Positions 1-22,259 of a stretch of 39,600 nt of DNA are shown piece after piece (position 1 is the stretch's first letter; the number at the start of each line of letters is the position of its first letter). Under the pieces are notes generated by a model that was not told the origin of the DNA, searched no databases, and was given only the letters and a program-made list of their open reading frames with translations. This DNA comes from a virus (Duplodnaviria > Heunggongvirae > Uroviricota > Caudoviricetes), in IMG/VR virus record IMGVR_UViG_2563366930_000006, positions 1 to 39,600 of that record, one strand, 5' to 3'. The translations under genes were made by a program, and so were the position numbers.

Positions 1-2955
1 TTAGTGCTTCCCTTCTATTAAGTCTAACCTAGCTTTTATTCTTTCTATTTCTCTGCGCTGCCATGCCGCCTCGATATAGAATAAGAGATCAGGTCTGACC
101 CCCCATCTAGATCCTGCTGGCGTTATTTCAACGCGCTCAATGATGTCTTCCATTACCATCACTGGATTATCATCCTCATCAACAATGATGCTCCCGTCAT
201 TATCAGTCAGCGGCATTTCCCTTTGGCCAGTAATGACGTCATCATATACTGCGGGATAATCGTCATAGCAAAGAAAGGCATATCGGCATGTTGTGCTTTC
301 TTCTTCCATGAGTCCGTGAGAAATAAGAACATCACGAAGTTGCTGCGCGATTACACCATGATGTATCCTCGCCCCTTCTTCCCCCTTTATAGCGACAGCG
401 TTCAGCCATTTATAAGCGATATACCTGACGTCACCCCAGGCATCCAGCAATGCTTCGTCAGGAGAGACCGGCTCTGTCTTTAATGTTCCGTCACTGGTAA
501 CCACAGGATTGGAGCCAAGATAAACTGTCGAGAACCTGTTTCCCGGACCACCAAGAGCATTTACATTATCAAGATAAGGTTTAACATCTCCGTTCTCAAA
601 AAGATGTTCGAGTGCGTTATATACCGCGCGACGTGGAGTACTGCTTCCGGAACCATGCAACGTTATCATTGCACCATCTGCTGAAGACGTTGTTTCACCG
701 CCGCTAACGATTAATCTCTGAGCGGTAACATCATCAGACGGTACTTTCTTCGCAATAATGGCGTAATTACCCTCAAGTTTGACTTCCGCGCGAACTTGTC
801 CTGATGTACCTGCATGGACAGTCAGTGACTGGACGGCAACATCATCTGTGAAATCAACGGGTACAGGAACCGTCCTCACGCCTGACGTCGACATAAAAGT
901 AGGAAGCGTTCTGTTAGGAGTGGCTCCGTAGACAAAATCCCTTGAAACAAATTCTTCCTGTTTAATTTTCACCCTGAAACAATACAAATCAGCCGGGTGA
1001 CCATCGTGAACATAAGGATATTTTCTGTTGTTATCCCCTATGCTCCATGGGTTTAGAAAGTCTTCCCCACCGAAAATGTAGTACAGCCAGTTGTCTTTGA
1101 TACAAACTGAACCAACACCAACCGCAGAGTTAACTATTCCGCCCTGATAAATCTGATCAGTAACATTAACCCACTCTACATTATCCAGACTCCACTCATT
1201 GACGTTAACTCTGGTCATAAATGTTCTTGGATAATTTCCTGCATAACGGTTATCAGGTTCTCCTCCTTCCCACTCACCAAATGCGCGCTCACTGCCAAAA
1301 ATAATCAGCTCATCGCCAACTTTGGCAAAAGGAAGGTTTGAGTGATGAACATTATTTGGGAAGCGAAGAGAATTCCATGATGTACCTAAATCAGAGCTTC
1401 TGTGCAATGAACTACCGGGTTGAGTACTTAATGTCCCCCTGGTCGTCAGATACAGAATGCCATCATAATATTTTACACATGGCTCAGATGCATTCGCCTC
1501 ATATTCTACAGGTATGCGTCTGCGAACAAAGCTACCAGGAGAACCGAAAGCATCAGAGAAATAGAGTATCCCAAGCTCGCGTGGATCAATATCACCATTA
1601 TGGTAGCCAACAGCAAAACTGTTATCGCTAATCGTCGCAAAACTGTGAATCTCAGTAACAGGAGTGCTTCCGTCAACAAAAGAAGGAATAGTTCCAAGAC
1701 TGGTTTTTCTCCATGGTGACGAGTGAAATGATGTACCAAAACTCCAGTATCTACCCTCGTTATTCTGATCCACATCCTGGGTATTTTGCGTCGTAACTGT
1801 AAAAGTATTTTTATCAATAACAGTAGTCACCGTCATATTCCCGGTAACACCTGTAACACCAGAGTTTGAGAAGTTGACAAAATCACCAGCAAATAATCCG
1901 TGATCAGTAATGCGAATATAAGCGACTTGCTGATTTGCTGCTTTCGTTATACCACCATAAACGCGAAGGCTGCGACTCATTGGGCGATCCCACAACTCTG
2001 CAACCTGCAGTTTATTTCCGCTCACGGTCCGCGTCTCAATTACAGCAAAAAGGCGATTTCTGACAACCCCCATACTCATGCAGTGATAGTTAACTGTGGG
2101 ATAGTTTTCATGTAAATCTGTAAGCCATTCCGGCGTTGTCCAGGTCTTCCCGTCATCTCCTGAGCGAACCCATGCAACATGGAGGTTATTTACACCATGG
2201 CGGTCTCCAGCCATAAAAGGCGCATAGATGACATTGTCATATACAAACGTTTTATCCTGCGTCCAGGCGTTGTACCACGGTGTATCTGTAATTTTAAATA
2301 ACTCTCCCTGGATAAAATCTTCAGAAGCATAAAAAAGAGGCTGACCCGGTATTCTCTCAAATAAAAAACGAGCATTTTTAAATCGACTGACATCTGGAAG
2401 AGTTGATACTTTAAAAGTAAGCCCTCGCCCATCTATCTTTTCACCACCTGTTGCAACAGAAAGTAATTCTGATAGAGCTGATGTATCATCATGAACACCA
2501 TCACCAATAGCCCCCCAACCTCTTACATCATAACTGTCTCTCCATCTTGCTATCTGAAGTTTTGGGTATTTATTCGCTCCATCTGGGTCTTCTAATTGCT
2601 GCCGTAACTGATCAGGATCATACTTCAGCACATTAGGAAAATAGAACTGCTGTGTACCATACGCATCATAAACAGCCATAGAATGGCCTTGCACGGTTAC
2701 GAATTTGGCAATCTGTCCGTTATATACCGGATATCCAGCAGCGTTAATGATGATTGGTTGCGAAACAGGAACGTGAGAACCGTTTTCGTTCTCCACATAA
2801 ACCTGAATCTGGTTTTCAGGATTTACAGGGTCAGTATCAATTTTACCGATATAAATTTTGCCATTGGCATTTGCTTTAAACGAGCGAGCTAAAGTAAATA
2901 ACTGACTTGGTTGTGAAACAACTACGTTGTATAATTGTTCTGGCATAATAAACAT
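1..2955 (-). CDS. Tailspike protein with P22-type N-terminal head-binding domain and C-terminal intramolecular-chaperone (S74-like) domain
   Basis: 984 aa ORF; N-terminus [37 protein letters not shown] resembles the P22 gp9 head-binding domain; C-terminal ~150 aa resembles the autoproteolytic chaperone of endosialidase-type fibers; stop TAA at 1-3. Confidence 0.9.
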
Positions 2956-2968
2956 TCCGGAGAAAATA

Positions 2969-3469
2969 ATGAGTAAGAGACGTCACGAGGTAGTAACTCG
3001 GGAGCGCCTTATGGAGGTTCTCGATTACAATAAAGAAACAGGAGTTTTCACTTGGAAAAAGAAATTAAGCGCCAGAGGTGCTGTTGGGAAAGTTGCTGGC
3101 ACAATTTCTTATGGATATAACGCAATTAATATTGATGGCGTAAGATATTTTGCACATAGACTTGCCTGGCTGTATGTATATGGCGAATGGCCCAAACAAG
3201 AGATTGACCACATTGATAGAAACAGAAGAAATAACGCAATCTCAAACCTTAGGGATGTCAGCAGAGTCGTAAATGCATTAAATGTCGGACCTCGAAATAG
3301 CAATGCTGGAATCAAGGGGGTAACTTTCTGTCAAGCCAGAAATCAATGGCAAGCTCAGATAAATGTCTCAGGTAAAAACATAACCCTTGGGAGATTCAAC
3401 ACCATTGATGAAGCGGCTATAGCTTATAAGGCAGCAAACATGGTTGCTGACCATCTGTTGAGTAGGTAA
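2969..3469 (+). CDS. HNH homing endonuclease with C-terminal AP2-type DNA-binding domain
   Basis: Motif [18 protein letters not shown] (HNH) followed by [40 protein letters not shown] (AP2-like); ATG at 2969 in the ORF frame. Confidence 0.75.
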
Positions 3470-3611
3470 TGTCTGTCATTTAATTTGCTCCAGATACAAG
3501 GAATCGCCGCAGCATGGCTACGGTTGATGTTTGTTGCATACCGAAATGGTACGATTGTTGATTTGTACAGTAGGTTTTACGATGCCATTCCACCCATTTG
3601 GTGAGGCATTG

Positions 3612-3869
3612 ATGATGTACAGCAAATACGATGAGGCGCAGTTCCACTTGAGGCTTACGCACGAGTTGCACGCTAAGATTAAGCAGCGTGCAAAAATGAA
3701 TAACAGGTCTATCAATTCCGAAATTGTGGCTACGATGGAAGAATCACTCTCCAAACCATCACCTGTAAGCGGGTATCGTGATGAAGAAGAGAGGTTGGCC
3801 TCATTAATCTCGGAGCGAGTAAAAGAAGTTGCGGCTGATATCCTTAGAAAAGAAAAAACCCGCGATTAA
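3612..3869 (+). CDS. mnt: Mnt-like ribbon-helix-helix repressor
   Basis: NNRSINSEIVATMEESLSKPSPVSGYRDEEERLA resembles P22 Mnt; GGTGAGG RBS before tandem ATG ATG at 3612. Confidence 0.75.
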   Translation: MMYSKYDEAQFHLRLTHELHAKIKQRAKMNNRSINSEIVATMEESLSKPSPVSGYRDEEERLASLISERVKEVAADILRKEKTRD

Positions 3870-3880
3870 GCGGGTTTAGT
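3853..3880. terminator. Bidirectional intrinsic terminator between convergent genes
   Basis: Stem CCCGC/GCGGG with loop GATTAA, A-run on one side and T-rich tract on the other; the mnt stop codon lies in the loop. Confidence 0.6.
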
Positions 3881-3883
3881 TGG

Positions 3884-4105
3884 TTAGTTATCAAAAAGTC
3901 CGTACGTTTCTTCTTCTTCAGGTGTAAGGGGAAGAATCTCTACTCTATCTATAGATATCTTTTCAATGTACCCATGAGGTCTACTTAAAATTAAAGCTCT
4001 CTCATGCCACAGAACTCCAAGAATGTGATACCTTCCAGCATCGCCTTTTACCCTGGCTCTTCCTTTGATTCTTGGCGGCATAATGCCATATTTTTTCTTT
4101 GCCAT
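3884..4105 (-). CDS. Hypothetical 73 aa protein, translationally coupled to the upstream gene
   Basis: ORF with ATG overlapping the upstream stop by one base (TAATG); followed by the bidirectional terminator. Confidence 0.45.
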   Translation of the reverse strand: MAKKKYGIMPPRIKGRARVKGDAGRYHILGVLWHERALILSRPHGYIEKISIDRVEILPLTPEEEETYGLFDN

Positions 4106-4833
4106 TATGCAACATTACTCCCATGAATCAGGTGTTGTAGTGCTTTAACACCTTCCTCATTGTAGCGGAATGCTTCCACCTGTTTGCTGGAATGCGCAGA
4201 TTTATCCAGGAAGAACTTCCCGTACTGCTCAGTTTTGAGGTTGTTTGCGTTAGCAATGCGACCAATCTTGTTGGCCGTTACTCCAAGCTGCTCTGCAACC
4301 TCCCCTGCTGAGTAGTAATGCTCTTCTATTGCTGGAAGAGGTATTGCATTAAAACCAACGATCGGGTTGATTATGCTTGCTGCCGCAGTCTGCTTTGCTT
4401 CCGGCGCAAGATTTGGCATCAAATCGAACAGATTGGTAACAGCTTCAACCGTCATTTTCAATGTTCGCGCCTGGCGATACTCAACAAGTCCACTAGACGA
4501 TTTACCGCTTTTAATGTGCGCTTCTTGCATACTTTCAAGTTGGTCTACAAGTGAGCGGCGAACAGCTTTAGATTCACGAGCAGCCACTCGAAGGGCTTGC
4601 TTAATTGACATAACAACTTTTTCAGAAGTTGTCTTGTTTGATTTTTGAACTACGAAAATTTCGTAGTGCTCACCTTCAAGTTCATCCTTAATGCGTGCAA
4701 TAAAGTCGTTATTGCGGACTTCTTTTTCCCCGCACTGTCTACGAGCATGATTGACCATCTCTAACAGGTACTGGCTATCAATGGTTTTATCCGTGACAAC
4801 GGATCCGATGTTTGCTACATTCTTAAAAGTCAT
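4105..4833 (-). CDS. Antirepressor-like protein with C-terminal KilAC-type domain
   Basis: C-terminal YSAGEVAEQLGVTANKIGRIANANNLKTEQYGKFF resembles the KilAC domain; ATG at 4833 with AAGGAA RBS; upstream in-frame codons judged non-coding. Confidence 0.6.
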   Translation of the reverse strand: MTFKNVANIGSVVTDKTIDSQYLLEMVNHARRQCGEKEVRNNDFIARIKDELEGEHYEIFVVQKSNKTTSEKVVMSIKQALRVAARESKAVRRSLVDQLESMQEAHIKSGKSSSGLVEYRQARTLKMTVEAVTNLFDLMPNLAPEAKQTAAASIINPIVGFNAIPLPAIEEHYYSAGEVAEQLGVTANKIGRIANANNLKTEQYGKFFLDKSAHSSKQVEAFRYNEEGVKALQHLIHGSNVA

Positions 4834-4902
4834 TAGGCATTCCTTATGTGGTAGTAAGGGTGTGACATAGGCCGCCAGCAGCACACTGGCGGTTTTCTTT
4901 TT
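4829..4902 (+). ncRNA. Candidate sar-like cis-antisense RNA (copy 2) over the start and RBS of the KilAC-domain gene
   Basis: Extended -10-like TGCTACATT at 4813-4821, then a canonical intrinsic terminator (stem GCCGCCAG/CTGGCGG, then TTTTCTTTTT) at 4871-4902 on the strand opposite the gene. Confidence 0.35.
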
Positions 4903-4921
4903 GCGCCGTCCGGCGCACCAA

Positions 4922-5548
4922 TCAATGAATCCATTCCTCGCCGCGCAGTTTTGCCAGCATTGGCTGAGCGTTCTTTACGACAAAATTGTTGGTATCAAGA
5001 TTCTTCATTTCACGAAGAAGTGATTTCTTGGTTTCTTCTGACATGTAGCGAGTCTCATATGCAATATCGTAAATCCTTCCTGAAAGCTCAGAACCAATTT
5101 GCTTCATTCCTGGGTAGATGTGTTTGCACATTTGTTGACTCTTCTCCATCCACAATTGTAAGTAGCAGAGATTAACCAGTTCTTCGTCAGTAAACTGTTT
5201 TGCAATCGGTGAGCATTCTGCCTGCCGATCCAAAATATCCAGCACCCAGCGGCGGAACTCTTTGGCTACCTGAGTGCGAGCAAACATCGCGATTAGGTGG
5301 GCACCGCGTAGTGAGAAAACACGCACTTTTTTGCGATAATTTCCTGAGGTACTCACTTCGAGTACCTGAGTCATTCCGGCGCTAAACTCATCGCTATACT
5401 TGTTATAAATCATTGTTACTGCACGACTATTTGCGTATTTAAGTGCAGATGCAATATTAGATGATGTAAACCAAACACCATGCATATCACGGGTGGGCAC
5501 CAATTCAACTCCGTGGAAGTTGTAATCTGATTTTGCTACAATATTCAT
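4922..5548 (-). CDS. ant: Antirepressor with AntA/Bro-N-type domain
   Basis: N-terminal region FHGVELVPTRDMHGVWFTSSNIASALKY typical of AntA-like antirepressors; ATG at 5548 with AAGGAAA RBS; sits downstream of arc. Confidence 0.7.
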   Translation of the reverse strand: MNIVAKSDYNFHGVELVPTRDMHGVWFTSSNIASALKYANSRAVTMIYNKYSDEFSAGMTQVLEVSTSGNYRKKVRVFSLRGAHLIAMFARTQVAKEFRRWVLDILDRQAECSPIAKQFTDEELVNLCYLQLWMEKSQQMCKHIYPGMKQIGSELSGRIYDIAYETRYMSEETKKSLLREMKNLDTNNFVVKNAQPMLAKLRGEEWIH

Positions 5549-11750: not shown

Positions 11751-12451
11751 CAGTCAATCAGCCCATGTAATCTAAGTGCCGTTTCAAGCGCCAGAATACG
11801 CTGCCGCGCCTGCTGCAAACCTGTAGCGAGGGCTGCGACTTCGGATTGTGTGTACGTAGTGCCGACTGTGTATGACTGGTTAGCGTTGAATGAGCCAAGA
11901 AGAGGTGTACCTGTGGCTGCAGTCCATCCGGTATTTCTTGCTCCAACAACCTGAATTCCATCAACTGAATATGATGTTTTTACATCCAGCGGTGACGCAA
12001 GAGACTGCAATTCTGTTACGGTTTTCGATACGTAATCACTCTTAATGCCAGAGACATCGTTTTCTACGTCATCCAGTCTTTGGTCAACAGTGACCAGATG
12101 CCCCTGAATATCGATAACCTCATCCAGCAAGTAATCAACATCGCTACGCAGTACGACTATCTTCCCTTCGGCGGTTGTTAACCTGACCTCAAGGAGATTT
12201 ATCGCTTTTGTGTTTGCGGTGATTCTTGCGTCGTGATCAGCCAGTTCTACGTCCTGTTCATCGTTTTTTACCTGGGCATCGTAAGCGCCCTGACCAGCCT
12301 GATTTGCCTTCCCAGCAATTGCACCGACATCAGCTCCCTGATTTATGACATACAGCAGGTAAGACTGGCTGAATATATTGCGTGGCAAAATTGAAGCATC
12401 AAGGCGCGTAGCCTGAACCACGACAGGATCATTCAGTGATGAATCAACCAT
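11750..12451 (-). CDS. Tail needle protein gp26-like
   Basis: 233 aa; [29 protein letters not shown] and C-terminal [22 protein letters not shown] resemble P22 gp26. Confidence 0.9.
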
Positions 12452-19006: not shown

Positions 19007-20422
19007 TCAACCTACACCACAAGGAATTGAGTAACTGGAATAGTCGGGTTGCGCAGCCGACTCCGGGCAATGCATACACATCATCAGCGCATCAGCCAGG
19101 TTAGGAGATGGAATACCGAGCTTCTGCTTCATTTCGACCTTAGTCATAAGCTCCAGCTTCCCGTTATTATTGAATTTGCGCTGAATCTGCGTCAGTTCTG
19201 CAAACAGCTTCTCCAGCATCTTCTCGCCTATCGCTTCTTTGTCGAAACTCAGCATGTCGTCGGGGTCTGCATACTCACCGTGGACAACCGCCCGATATGT
19301 CAGATACAGCCTGTCAGCCAGCGCGTAATAGAATTGCGCTCGCTTATTGCGGAATACATCGCCAATAGTGCGAACGTTGTCGCCCTGCACGACTTCATCA
19401 GCCCATGCTCCGGCCTGATATGGTGCATCTTCATCAAATGGCGATTCGCTGCCCTTGAACATCGTAGCGGTGATTTTCTTACCGGAGAATGCTTCCGTTG
19501 TCTGTCTGCGTAGCCCTGCACCAACGCCATCGCCATCCCACAAGTAGTGGTCAGCGCCGTCTTCAATCGCCAGCGAAGTTGCCCAGTCAGCACCTTCATT
19601 GATGTCCATCAGCAGACCTTCGGCAATGCGCTTAACTACCGAACCGTGGCGCGATGCATAACCTTTAGCATCCGGTCCTGTATCTGACGGGTCATGCGCA
19701 GAGACAACAGCGCCTTTCGCTTTCCATCCGAGTTTCTTGTGCGCATCGGTTGCGGCTTCAAGCCATTCACGTTTGATGATTGCCATATCACTTGCGCTTA
19801 CTGGCTCACCAAGCCAGATGTGACGATACAGTGTCGGATTTCTGCGTTTGCACTCTTCCATCTCCAGACGGAGAACTTCAGGAAAGTGCGGGTTGTCGGT
19901 GTAGTTCACCGTCAGCAGGCAAATATCATCGGGAGGATTTACGACGAATCGCTGATAGGTATCGTCGAGGATGTTCTTCGGGTTAAAGCTCACCCATATT
20001 TCAGAGAACGGCTTACGGATGGTTGGGATCAGGATATCCCATGATTCCTTCGTTACCGCTTCCGCTTCTTCCACCCAGCAGATATCAATGCCTTCGAGCG
20101 ATTTAATCTTCGTCGGGTTGTTTTTTATGCCGTAGAACATGAATTCAGCATTCGTTCCGAGATGACGAATCATTGAACGCTGAATTTCAAACTCAGCCGA
20201 ATATCCTTCACGCTCGATGGTGTCTTCAAGCAGCCGGATTACCGAATCGCTGATACTGTTTTGCAGTTCACGAGCGCAGAGAATACGCACAGGCTGCCGA
20301 CGCGCCGCTTCAACAAGCAGTCTCGCAATTGCCCATGATTTACCGCTACCTCGACCGCCTTTGGCGACTTTGTAGCGATGCGCCTCAATGAACGGTTCAA
20401 AGATAGGATTAATCGAGGTCAT
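19007..20422 (-). CDS. Terminase large subunit
   Basis: Walker A-like KGGRGSGKS near the N-terminus; 471 aa; start overlaps the terS stop (ATGA). Confidence 0.9.
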   Translation of the reverse strand: MTSINPIFEPFIEAHRYKVAKGGRGSGKSWAIARLLVEAARRQPVRILCARELQNSISDSVIRLLEDTIEREGYSAEFEIQRSMIRHLGTNAEFMFYGIKNNPTKIKSLEGIDICWVEEAEAVTKESWDILIPTIRKPFSEIWVSFNPKNILDDTYQRFVVNPPDDICLLTVNYTDNPHFPEVLRLEMEECKRRNPTLYRHIWLGEPVSASDMAIIKREWLEAATDAHKKLGWKAKGAVVSAHDPSDTGPDAKGYASRHGSVVKRIAEGLLMDINEGADWATSLAIEDGADHYLWDGDGVGAGLRRQTTEAFSGKKITATMFKGSESPFDEDAPYQAGAWADEVVQGDNVRTIGDVFRNKRAQFYYALADRLYLTYRAVVHGEYADPDDMLSFDKEAIGEKMLEKLFAELTQIQRKFNNNGKLELMTKVEMKQKLGIPSPNLADALMMCMHCPESAAQPDYSSYSIPCGVG

Positions 20423-20946
20423 TTTCCGAATAGAGTGCTCATCGGTGATGTTTCAATCTGGATTGCGCCGCCGTCTTTGCCTGTTAGTTCGTGAGAAGCT
20501 TGTTCTTTAAACGCCTGAACAGAAACATGCTTACCAAGAAGTTCGAGGTTTTTAACCTTATCAGGCCATTTGATTTTCTTCAGGAGTGCGGCGCTATCTG
20601 CGGATGCCATCTCCACGACATCCATTCCTGATAACGTTGTGCGCCATACCTTAGGCCAGTCTTTAATGGGTTTTAGCTCACCGTTTTGCAGGAGAATGTC
20701 AAGCACATCCATCTGGTCGATTTCAATAAGGCGATTAAGTACATATTCTGCATTAATACCAACAAGATCATTGCGTTGTGCTTTCAGTTCGGCGATTCTG
20801 AGTTGTATGTCAGGTTTTGACATGTTTTCGGACGCAGTACGGTTGGCTGTTTTTGCGCTGTACCCCGCCCGAATAGCCGCTTGCGTGGCGTTTAAATCGA
20901 TGAGGTACTCGCGACAGAACATTTCTTGCTTGTCGGTGAGTGCCAT
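20419..20946 (-). CDS. Terminase small subunit
   Basis: N-terminal DKQEMFCREYLIDLNATQAAIRAGYS motif; C-terminus GKDGGAIQIETSPMSTLFGK resembles Sf6-type small terminase. Confidence 0.85.
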   Translation of the reverse strand: MALTDKQEMFCREYLIDLNATQAAIRAGYSAKTANRTASENMSKPDIQLRIAELKAQRNDLVGINAEYVLNRLIEIDQMDVLDILLQNGELKPIKDWPKVWRTTLSGMDVVEMASADSAALLKKIKWPDKVKNLELLGKHVSVQAFKEQASHELTGKDGGAIQIETSPMSTLFGK

Positions 20947-20970
20947 TTAATTACCTTTGGGAGATGCCCA

Positions 20971-21504
20971 ATGAGTTTAGAAAAATTACTAATCAAAAAC
21001 AGAAAGTGCGGTTCATGCTCTGTGTGCTGCACTTCGCTACGAATTGAACAGCCAACGTTAAAAAAGTTGGCTGACATCCCATGCCAGCACCTTAAACATC
21101 AGGGAGGATGTGCAATTTATGATGAACGCCCTTCTGTTTGCCGCACTTGGTATTGCGGATGGCGAATTCTGGATATAGGACCAGAGATGCGTCCTGATCG
21201 GAGTGGAGTTCTAATCCGTTATGATGGATCATCACTCTGCTTTCAACCCGTAGACAAAAACCGCGTATCTGCTTTGATCGAACCAGAGCCTCTGCGAATT
21301 TTGGGTGGCCTGATAGATCAAGGTATGAAAGTGGAAATATCGGTTCCAACAAAGGAAGGGTATTGCTCAGCCAATATTAATGTCACTGAGCATATGTCAG
21401 AGGTTGTAAAAAGCAGAGAGTATGTAAAAATGCGTTCGGCTCTTTTGGCGCTCATTCAATTCGCATCACGAGCAAAGACAGATCCAGTAGAACCGCTGGA
21501 ATGA
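20971..21504 (+). CDS. YkgJ-family CxxCxxCC cysteine-cluster protein (putative Zn/Fe-binding), moron on the strand opposite the late operon
   Basis: CGSCSVCC ... CQHLKHQGGCAIYDERPSVCRTWYC fits the CxxCxxCC domain pattern; GGGAGA RBS before ATG at 20971. Confidence 0.65.
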   Translation: MSLEKLLIKNRKCGSCSVCCTSLRIEQPTLKKLADIPCQHLKHQGGCAIYDERPSVCRTWYCGWRILDIGPEMRPDRSGVLIRYDGSSLCFQPVDKNRVSALIEPEPLRILGGLIDQGMKVEISVPTKEGYCSANINVTEHMSEVVKSREYVKMRSALLALIQFASRAKTDPVEPLE

Positions 21505-21512
21505 TTATTCAG

Positions 21513-21536
21513 GTCGGGTTTAACACCCGGCTTTTT
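21513..21536 (+). terminator. Intrinsic terminator after the YkgJ-like gene
   Basis: 7-bp stem GUCGGGU/ACCCGGC then CUUUUU. Confidence 0.55.
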
Positions 21537-21779
21537 GAAATGGTACTCATTGCATCGCTTAATTTTCTTTAAATGAGAAACGTCCTCTTTCTTAACTGAA
21601 GACATTAATTCTTTATCAGTTCGAACATTCATTTTTTTCCATTGCATGATCTTCGCTAATTTATAATTTGCAGTTCTCCTGCAACGATTTGTTATGTGAT
21701 AGGATATCTCTCTTCGTTTGGCGGTCCATTACTTCAATATCGTGATCATTAAGGTATAGGCTTTGTAATGCCTACATGG

Positions 21780-22259
21780 TTAAATGATTTGCCAGTCTTC
21801 AGCCATCAGGTCGCCAATGGATGGAGCCCATGTAGCAAGGCGGTTCTGTGAGTTTTTCAATACAAGCGTGTCATTGAAAGTTGGCTCGCCAACATATTCG
21901 CCAAAGCCATAACCCAACGCAGACGCTAATTTTTCTCCTTTCACGAGATAAACAAACTGATCTTTCCCATTCCATCCTGCCCGCTGCAAACTTTTGCCCT
22001 GTTTTAACGCTTCCATGGCAAGGCCGAAACTTAGCCCTGATACCGGACGATAAGCCTTTTCGAATACTTCTTTTGGACTCCAGCTAACGTAGCCATCAAA
22101 GCGATCGGTGTTAGGTTTTCCGCCATCCAGATATTCAACCAGATAGCCTTCGTCCTCGCCGTTTTCTCCGGCAGGAAGCTGCCAGCCACGAAAATCGTTA
22201 TATGCCTGTCTCGTCATCGGAAAGGCGTTAATCAGTTTTACGCCAATATGCTGGGTCAT
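21780..22259 (-). CDS. DUF2829-like (Tad2-like) protein with an N-terminal extension of about 75 aa
   Basis: C-terminal half LAMEALKQGKSLQRAGWNGKDQFVYL ... ATWAPSIGDLMAEDWQII matches the DUF2829 pattern; ATG at 22259 favoured, the upstream in-frame start would be TTG. Confidence 0.5.
   Translation of the reverse strand: MTQHIGVKLINAFPMTRQAYNDFRGWQLPAGENGEDEGYLVEYLDGGKPNTDRFDGYVSWSPKEVFEKAYRPVSGLSFGLAMEALKQGKSLQRAGWNGKDQFVYLVKGEKLASALGYGFGEYVGEPTFNDTLVLKNSQNRLATWAPSIGDLMAEDWQII

Follow-up and report, generated by a model that had tools for sequence, protein, structure and literature searches.

Why should a temperate phage carry, within its late operon and on the opposite strand, a gene for a small cysteine-rich protein? 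The question is raised by a stretch of 39,600 nucleotides (positions 1 to 39,600 of the IMG/VR virus record IMGVR_UViG_2563366930_000006, Caudoviricetes), here called the window. It contains a gene for a 177-aa protein with a CxxCxxCC motif, the cysteine-cluster gene, close to the start of the small-terminase gene terS. An earlier reading by a model that saw only the letters and the open reading frames (ORFs), the sequence-only reading, had described the gene as moron-like. Our analysis identifies it as dispensable, horizontally mobile cargo at a classical moron position. We also define the cassette in which it travels, and consider what its product may do.

The window region is 100% identical to prophages in five Escherichia coli chromosomes, and the annotation of one identical prophage (65 features) identifies it as a complete P22-like (Lederbergvirus-type) E. 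coli prophage. The gene set comprises an integrase, tailspike, P22-type capsid, portal, a PBSX-type large terminase and a Terminase_2 small terminase, together with lysis genes, a Q antiterminator and a lambdoid early region. From Q through the genes of the DNA-transfer (ejection) proteins, the cysteine-cluster gene is the sole coding sequence (CDS) on the plus strand; it sits between the lysis and packaging genes, antisense to the late operon. Both the ORF list and the raw sequence give ATG 20971 as its start and 21502–21504 as its stop codon, and an in-frame TTG at 20926 is an alternative start that would give 192 aa. The terS ORF occupies 20419–20946 of the minus strand, with its ATG at 20944–20946, and exactly 24 bp (20947–20970) separate the two start codons. 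The RefSeq annotation of the identical prophage by the Prokaryotic Genome Annotation Pipeline (PGAP) has the same two CDSs, the cysteine-cluster CDS being entered as WP_001525208.1, 'YkgJ family cysteine cluster protein'. ORFs, sequence and PGAP therefore bear out the 177-aa gene described by the sequence-only reading, opposite the late operon and 24 bp from the terS start. The features of the locus are collected in Table 1.

Table 1. Features of the cysteine-cluster locus, in window coordinates
Feature	Position	Strand	Evidence
Mobile cassette	20958..21721		Found again, at about 91% nucleotide identity, in Citrobacter and metagenome prophages that are otherwise unrelated
Divergent spacer with both Shine–Dalgarno sequences back to back	20947..20970		Sequence TTAATTACCTTTGGGAGATGCCCA
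Cysteine-cluster protein gene, 177 aa	20971..21504	+	ORF list, PGAP, dN/dS, AlphaFold model
N-terminal eight-cysteine domain, residues 11–76	21001..21198	+	51-sequence alignment, Pfam PF03692
C-terminal alpha/beta domain, residues 77–177, specific to the ~180-aa family	21199..21501	+	
Intrinsic-terminator-like hairpin GTCGGGT-TTAAC-ACCCGGC, then TTTTT	21513..21536	+	RNA folding, terminator scan
Small convergent ORF, 58 aa, MNVRTDKELM...	21456..21632	−	Homologous ORFs beside other cassette copies

Mobile cargo at the lysis–packaging junction

The cysteine-cluster gene is present in 5 of 5426 complete E. coli genomes, by megablast and equally by a more sensitive blastn mode; the flanking DUF2829 region matches 2268 of the 5426. 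The carrier strains come from human, marsupial and chicken hosts. The comparison with related phages lacking the insert, proposed by the sequence-only reading, is provided by two genomes without the gene at the same junction. In the E. coli E41 prophage, a related terS is separated from the same DUF2829 gene by just ~300 bp of unrelated sequence, and phage Kapi1 has two unrelated small co-directional ORFs in this place and no cassette. As the gene is found in so few E. coli genomes and is absent from close relatives, it is dispensable cargo, and it is horizontally mobile. A segment of about 760 bp (window 20958/20961–21721) aligns at about 91% identity with Citrobacter and metagenome prophages (L003–L006, blastn). 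The cassette has a GC content of 41.9%, compared with 46.7% for the window, and GC at third codon positions is 37% in the cysteine-cluster gene, 46% in terS and 54% in the large-terminase gene terL.

Further copies were examined in Citrobacter, Rahnella and Providencia prophages, in further metagenome contigs and in some 30 viral contigs of IMG/VR. Within this enterobacterial and viral set, the proteins share 42% to 100% identity with the window copy. Throughout the set the gene lies between lysis genes (GH19 or lysozyme, Rz, holins) and packaging genes and runs antisense to the late genes. The adjoining packaging genes are of four unrelated kinds (Terminase_2/PBSX; Terminase_4 with HNH and an HK97-type TerL; Nu1/GpA; others). 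A distant copy with 36% identity (L103) lies on the far side of the lysis genes. Decayed copies were also found. One viral contig (L089, 4001–4532) has a frameshifted gene and a split terS, and a truncated product of 105 aa (P0012) appears in the annotation of Shigella flexneri and E. coli assemblies.

An accessory factor for packaging or morphogenesis that works with the small terminase was also considered; it has only the 24-bp closeness to terS in its favour. The gene stands beside four unrelated terminase types, often with other genes in between, and it is missing from E41, with its related terS, and from 5421 of the 5426 E. coli genomes. It lies opposite to the late operon, and its homologues are chromosomal in Alphaproteobacteria. 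We regard such a factor as effectively refuted. The sequence-only reading had set against its own proposal the case that the gene is present in all relatives as an essential morphogenesis factor, and this is clearly not what the relatives show.

The interval between lysis and terminase genes holds other cargo in other phages (L007, L011, L082, L086, L092–L100), including a 485-aa protein with a weak glycosyltransferase-2 match and proteins of 196–218 aa without family matches. Different cargo at the same interval in different phages therefore suggests that the junction is a hot spot for accessory or anti-defence cargo.

Two further genes may be recorded here. In the prophage of Kosakonia sp. 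H7A, a gene with an Acb2/Tad1-hairpin domain occupies the equivalent interval (L156, 176–457). In the window, the product of the late gene next to the cassette (21780–22259, minus strand) belongs to DUF2829 and has a domain resembling Thoeris anti-defence 2 (Tad2; Pfam E = 2.4e-21); one phage record calls a DUF2829 region of about 95–97% identity 'anti-CRISPR protein'.

The closest known parallel is bor of phage lambda, a moron on the opposite strand at the point where the lysis genes give way to the packaging end of the late operon; bor encodes an outer-membrane lipoprotein with a serum-resistance phenotype and has a documented promoter. As with bor, a single extra gene of foreign composition lies at the same junction on the opposite strand, with its own terminator; it is absent from close relatives and its expression would be expected from the prophage. 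The window gene differs in that its product is cytoplasmic and that a control region conserved elsewhere is lost in this copy. Three marks of a moron are present: absence from the same junction in relatives, a terminator of its own and deviant base composition. The moron-like placement proposed by the sequence-only reading is supported by these, by the antisense position and by the gene's own ribosome-binding site (RBS). The gene is in this respect an unexceptional phage passenger of a familiar type, one that RefSeq already annotates. What is new here is the definition of the cassette, its fixed position and orientation across unrelated phages and the lost control region, as well as an unannotated companion ORF and a link to iron–sulfur methyltransferase chemistry.

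Sequence and predicted structure of the protein

The cysteine-cluster gene is real and under purifying selection. Compared with the 91%-identical copy in a Citrobacter prophage, there are 25 synonymous and 12 non-synonymous differences, and the ratio of non-synonymous to synonymous substitution rates (dN/dS) is 0.127. The product is a soluble, cytoplasmic, two-domain 20-kDa protein (19.9 kDa, isoelectric point (pI) 8.5) with no hydrophobic or membrane segment. Its N-terminus reads MSLEKLLIKNRKCGSCSVCC, and the CxxCxxCC motif is formed by C13-G-S-C16-S-V-C19-C20. In an alignment of 51 sequences, eight cysteines (C13, C16, C19, C20, C38, C47, C57 and C62) are invariant or at least 90% conserved. 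R11, K32, G46, I49, Y50, R53-P54, Y61, G63-W64-R65, R74-P75-D76 and G130 are likewise invariant or nearly so. The conserved blocks are G46-C47-x-I49-Y50 and Y61-C62-G63-W64-R65. All eight conserved cysteines fall within the first 62 residues; a variable domain of about 100 residues follows. The AlphaFold2 model is confident and shows two domains (mean predicted local distance difference test score (pLDDT) 91.3, predicted template modelling score 0.86). No solved structure resembling the protein was found, and among predicted viral structures only four uncharacterised phage proteins, one of them from a cyanophage, match at E ≤ 1e-3.

A word-index search returned 57 homologues. In an exhaustive profile search, the number of full-length cluster representatives was 249 at a threshold of E ≤ 1e-30 and rose to about 5000 at E ≤ 1e-10. 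By tblastn, the N-terminal domain is present in many T4-like cyanophages. In data with one genome per species, most members come from Alphaproteobacteria (Acetobacteraceae, Rhizomicrobium, Micropepsaceae); a minority are found in a few Burkholderiales, Limnobacter and Dyella. A compact two-domain family is thereby defined that has neither a Pfam or NCBIfam model nor a solved structure. In one metagenomic homologue (P0027, 206 aa), a SEC-C zinc-binding motif (PF02810, E = 7.9e-9) stands at the C-terminus, where the C-terminal domain would otherwise end.

The clusters of conserved neighbouring ORFs at 53 chromosomal GTDB loci proved to be only spurious antisense ORFs of high GC content. In three alphaproteobacterial loci only, the homologue follows a fused hydantoinase A/B gene (1200 aa) and overlaps its end by 4 bp (L012 2402–6540, L014 2405–6552 and L061 ~1401–5531; the link holds for P0051, P0038 and L061); the hydantoinase gene is itself preceded by genes for a thiamine pyrophosphate enzyme and a coenzyme A-transferase. 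The hydantoinase operon was rejected as a general feature of the family on this count. A role as a small metal-binding subunit is possible within the hydantoinase-linked subgroup only.

Relationship to YkgJ, FliB and DpdM

The only Pfam family that matches the window protein at E ≤ 0.1 is PF03692 (CxxCxxCC), over residues 12–59, with 21.1 bits and E = 5.3e-4; the gathering cut-off is 23 bits. The same model matches 19 of the 51 family members at E ≤ 0.01, the best at E = 2e-4. The motif itself is in place, C-x2-C-x2-C-C near the N-terminus with C13, C16, C19 and C20 at least 90% conserved in the 51 homologues. No NCBIfam family matches at E ≤ 0.1 and no PADLOC defence-system family at E ≤ 0.01; PHROGs has one matching family, of unknown function. 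Against E. coli YkgJ, BLASTP gives E = 0.007 with 12 of 42 residues identical, and hhalign a probability of 47% over the 16-column block C-x-I-Y-x-x-R-x-x-x-C-R. Both proteins have an N-terminal C-x2-C-x2-C-C followed by G/C-C-x-I-Y-x-x-R-x-x-x-C-R, but YkgJ has 109 aa and lacks the C-terminal domain of about 100 aa. By sequence, the window protein is thus placed as a distant, sub-threshold relative of the YkgJ/CxxCxxCC family. The label 'YkgJ-type' of the sequence-only reading holds for the motif and goes too far for the family models, given the sub-threshold Pfam score and the lack of an NCBIfam match.

The statement that YkgJ-family proteins are of unknown function is partly outdated, in that FliB and DpdM, which have a similar motif, are characterised N-methyltransferases (PMC8598068, PMC10516641). 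In the literature on cysteine-cluster proteins and prophages, functional work was found only for these two, and the Pfam text on the PF03692 domain says merely 'putative zinc- or iron-chelating domain'. The comparisons that follow draw on published motifs and on family models. In Salmonella, FliB is the flagellin lysine N-methyltransferase. Eight of its cysteines are conserved, and its single [4Fe-4S] cluster, bound by a CX4CX3CC motif, is sensitive to oxygen and indispensable for the S-adenosylmethionine (SAM)-dependent N-methylation of lysine (PMC8598068). FliB thereby offers the best model at hand for the work of such a domain. The window protein shares with FliB the N-terminal cysteine motif ending in CC and the number of conserved cysteines, and differs in the spacing, CX2CX2CC. 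E. coli lacks FliB (PMC10399903). DpdM is a phage-encoded dPreQ1 N-methyltransferase that acts on DNA (DUF3109); its authors call it a YkgJ homologue and model its CxxxCxxCC motif and four further cysteines as two four-cysteine metal pockets (PMC10516641). The window protein is likewise phage-encoded and has a motif ending in CC plus four cysteines, but its spacing is CxxCxxCC, Pfam gives no DUF3109 match at E ≤ 0.1, and there are no 7-deazaguanine genes (dpdA, queC/D/E/F) among the 65 annotated features of the identical prophage. By tblastn, no match to Vibrio or Cellulophaga phages was found at E ≤ 1e-3. Because no FliB or DpdM family model in NCBIfam or Pfam matches it, its motif is spaced differently and there is no flagellar or 7-deazaguanine context, the window protein is not, as judged from its sequence, a member of the FliB or DpdM family.

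Expression signals and the lost control region

The RBS GGGAGA (20959–20964, plus strand) lies 6 nt before the ATG. The Shine–Dalgarno sequence of terS, AAGGT on the minus strand (the complement of 20953–20957), shares the same 24-bp spacer. Behind the stop codon, a stem-loop (21513–31) of 7–8 pairs, five of them G–C, is followed by TTTTT (21532–36), and a 46-nt segment with the hairpin folds at −13.7 kcal/mol (z = −2.7 compared with shuffles). This terminator was found by our own hairpin scan and is missing from the list of the consensus scan; it is modest to moderate, not textbook. The RBS and the terminator that the sequence-only reading had described are therefore present. The hairpin is retained in L003 and L005 with an interrupted U-run, and the Rahnella copy (L007) has an unrelated strong terminator at the same place. 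A canonical hairpin with U-run is found in L007 and L084 and not in most other copies. A universal own terminator was rejected, as most divergent copies lack a canonical hairpin and U-run within 110 nt of the stop codon.

The sequence-only reading had further held that the promoter must lie inside terS. This was a geometric inference only, and no σ70-like site above chance lies upstream. A consensus scan of 20300–20970 returned no promoter-like site on the plus strand. With a position weight matrix, the best sites are TTGACA-15-TACGGT (127 nt upstream) and TTGTCG-16-TACCTT (13 nt upstream); their scores, 8.8 and 7.5, are below 9.7, the 90th percentile of random 200-nt windows from this phage.

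Other copies of the cassette have a recognisable upstream region. A box CTG-N9-CAGG(A/G)T, 76–117 nt before the ATG, is shared by 24 of the 32 distinct homologous cassettes; 21–23 nt behind it comes a −10-like TATTGT, TATTTT or TATAAA. The background density of the core pattern is 0.36 per kb in the same loci. The box (L003 5914–5931, L005 ~2541–2558, L011 ~1056–1073) accompanies the gene whatever lies upstream, and in L011 it is inside the neighbouring coding sequence. It looks like an inverted repeat, a putative operator overlapping the −35 position. A LexA box was considered and rejected, the spacing being CTG-N9-CAG and not CTG-N10-CAG. The lineage L085–L087 has a strong σ70 site, TTGAAG-18-TATACT, instead of the box. 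Neither the conserved box nor a site of the L085–L087 type is present in window 20700–20970, and the homology of the window to the other cassettes begins 13 nt before the ATG. Since the homology starts so close to the gene and the box is absent, we conclude that recombination joined the cassette directly to the start of terS and removed the native control region. In other phages the cassette would carry a regulated promoter region of its own, which this prophage has lost. The window copy may be weakly expressed or silent, and we put the chances of any expression of this E. coli copy at about even.

The gene could accordingly be a silent hitchhiker, intact but unexpressed and at present of no use to phage or host, left behind when recombination fused the cassette to terS and took away promoter and operator. 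The truncated homology, the missing box and −10 region and the lack of a promoter-like site above chance all fit, as do the decayed copies with a frameshift (L089) or a 105-aa product (P0012); the E. coli copies are essentially identical and give no sign of selection after the fusion. Such a remnant has to be reconciled, however, with an ORF, RBS and terminator that are all intact and with the retention of the same prophage in strains from human, marsupial and chicken hosts; moreover, weak or activator-dependent promoters escape consensus scans. We consider a silent remnant rather unlikely.

A small convergent ORF accompanies the gene

A small ORF (21632–21456) that the sequence-only reading had missed converges on the cysteine-cluster gene. 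It has 58 codons, or 63 if translation starts at the ATG at 21647, and runs on through the hairpin of the terminator into the final 49 nt of the gene. A homologue stands convergent after the main gene in every examined enterobacterial copy of at least 42% identity, except in the truncated contig L101. The conserved core is [ST]D-xx-LM ... LxK[IF] ... [FY]x[FW], with a dN/dS of 0.15–0.47 in informative pairs, and AAGGAGG RBSs precede the ORF in one lineage. Gene callers predict 20 clusters of it, and PGAP has no annotation here. The small ORF has no Pfam or PHROG match, and its structure model is poor (pLDDT 61, two short helices). Two notions were discarded. A ribbon-helix-helix repressor, indicated by an N-terminal resemblance, has no Pfam match at E ≤ 1 and no better model than that just given; gene-caller noise, considered as the versions in L007 and L011 looked unrelated, was overturned by a motif search and alignment.

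The close association raises a two-gene module, in which the small ORF would encode a regulator, inhibitor or substrate of the main protein and the convergent overlap would make expression of the two mutually exclusive. The pairing in all examined enterobacterial copies of at least 42% identity apart from L101 and the moderate constraint on the core are consistent with this. So is the co-variation of small-ORF and main-gene identity (Pearson r = 0.82 over 210 non-independent pairs). The small ORF is also absent downstream of all 53 chromosomal homologues and from phages without the cassette. Physical linkage through overlapping 3′ ends could nevertheless explain the co-inheritance by itself, and the overlap is not conserved, the stop-to-stop offset between small ORF and main gene ranging from −62 to +46 nt. 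The poor model and the lack of family matches also count against a module. In the Kosakonia prophage L156, moreover, the small ORF lies between two late genes with no main gene beside it, a single such case, and it is therefore not strictly dependent on the main gene. A two-gene module appears quite unlikely to us.

Proposed function

The reading that we prefer combines the results as follows: a cargo cassette has as its product a metal-cluster protein, which is probably an enzyme and does its work in the lysogen. For this combination as a whole we see the balance as even, and its parts differ in strength. Metal binding by the cysteine-cluster protein is probable, by analogy with FliB and DpdM, in which case the eight cysteines would form two four-cysteine metal sites (iron–sulfur and/or zinc). 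Action during lysogeny is somewhat favoured. Q-modified late transcription in lambdoid phages reads through terminators. Such antiterminated transcription would run antisense across the small ORF and the whole cysteine-cluster gene before it reaches terS, silencing the gene, which could be freely expressed only with the late operon off, that is, in the lysogen. Since the gene is antisense to a late operon of about 17 kb, its natural time of action would be lysogeny. The small metal-cluster enzyme would then modify some molecule of the host or of the phage in the dormant state. Our best single guess at the reaction, and a doubtful one, is that an amine is methylated, as it is by FliB and DpdM.

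A number of points weigh against this preferred reading. For the expression of the window copy, they are the empty promoter scan and the missing box and σ70 site; in addition, the eight copies of the E. coli type are essentially identical, so that selection since the rearrangement cannot be judged from them. For the biochemistry, the PF03692 score is below the cut-off and the FliB and DpdM models do not match; the window protein is also much smaller than FliB and has no flagellar context. The phage matches by tblastn are limited to cyanophages, one Rhizobium phage and one marine virus, and the chromosomal homologues, mostly of Alphaproteobacteria, have no conserved neighbours at the 53 GTDB loci that would hint at a substrate. 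No SAM-binding motif is known for the CxxCxxCC-type fold.

The conserved cysteines could also be those of a non-catalytic metal finger, with structural zinc, that binds a protein or nucleic acid of host or phage and has a part in regulation, anti-defence or superinfection exclusion. Consistent with such a finger are the basic pI of 8.5 and the conserved K32, R53, R65, R74 and aromatic residues; the hot spot also holds genes of anti-defence type (the Tad2-like DUF2829 neighbour and the Acb2/Tad1-hairpin gene in Kosakonia L156), and the Pfam description goes no further than putative zinc or iron chelation. A finger is harder to square with the lack of a PADLOC match and with the position antisense to the late operon, as anti-defence genes are normally on early or late in infection. 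That homologues occur on the chromosomes of free-living Alphaproteobacteria points to a general biochemical activity more than to an inhibitor specific to phages, and both characterised proteins of this motif type, FliB and DpdM, are enzymes. We regard a non-catalytic finger as unlikely.

Returning to the enzymatic reading, its boldest form would make the ~180-aa proteins a third functional branch of CxxCxxCC metal-cluster enzymes beside FliB and DpdM, captured by temperate enterobacterial phages as a self-contained, regulated cassette of three parts (the operator-like CTG-N9-CAGGAT box, the enzyme gene and the small convergent partner ORF) and chemically modifying a target of host or phage in lysogeny. 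This is a speculative and distinctly improbable proposal. If it were true, the cassette would bring about lysogenic conversion or phage exclusion, switched off by late transcription. A soluble 20-kDa member would be an easy system for the unusual iron–sulfur-dependent methyl transfer chemistry, and would also allow one to ask what prophages gain from it.

A further gene of the prophage

A NUMOD4-domain (homing-endonuclease-like) gene is annotated in the identical prophage at about 11884–12429 on the minus strand, amid P22-type genes for the head and for DNA stabilisation.

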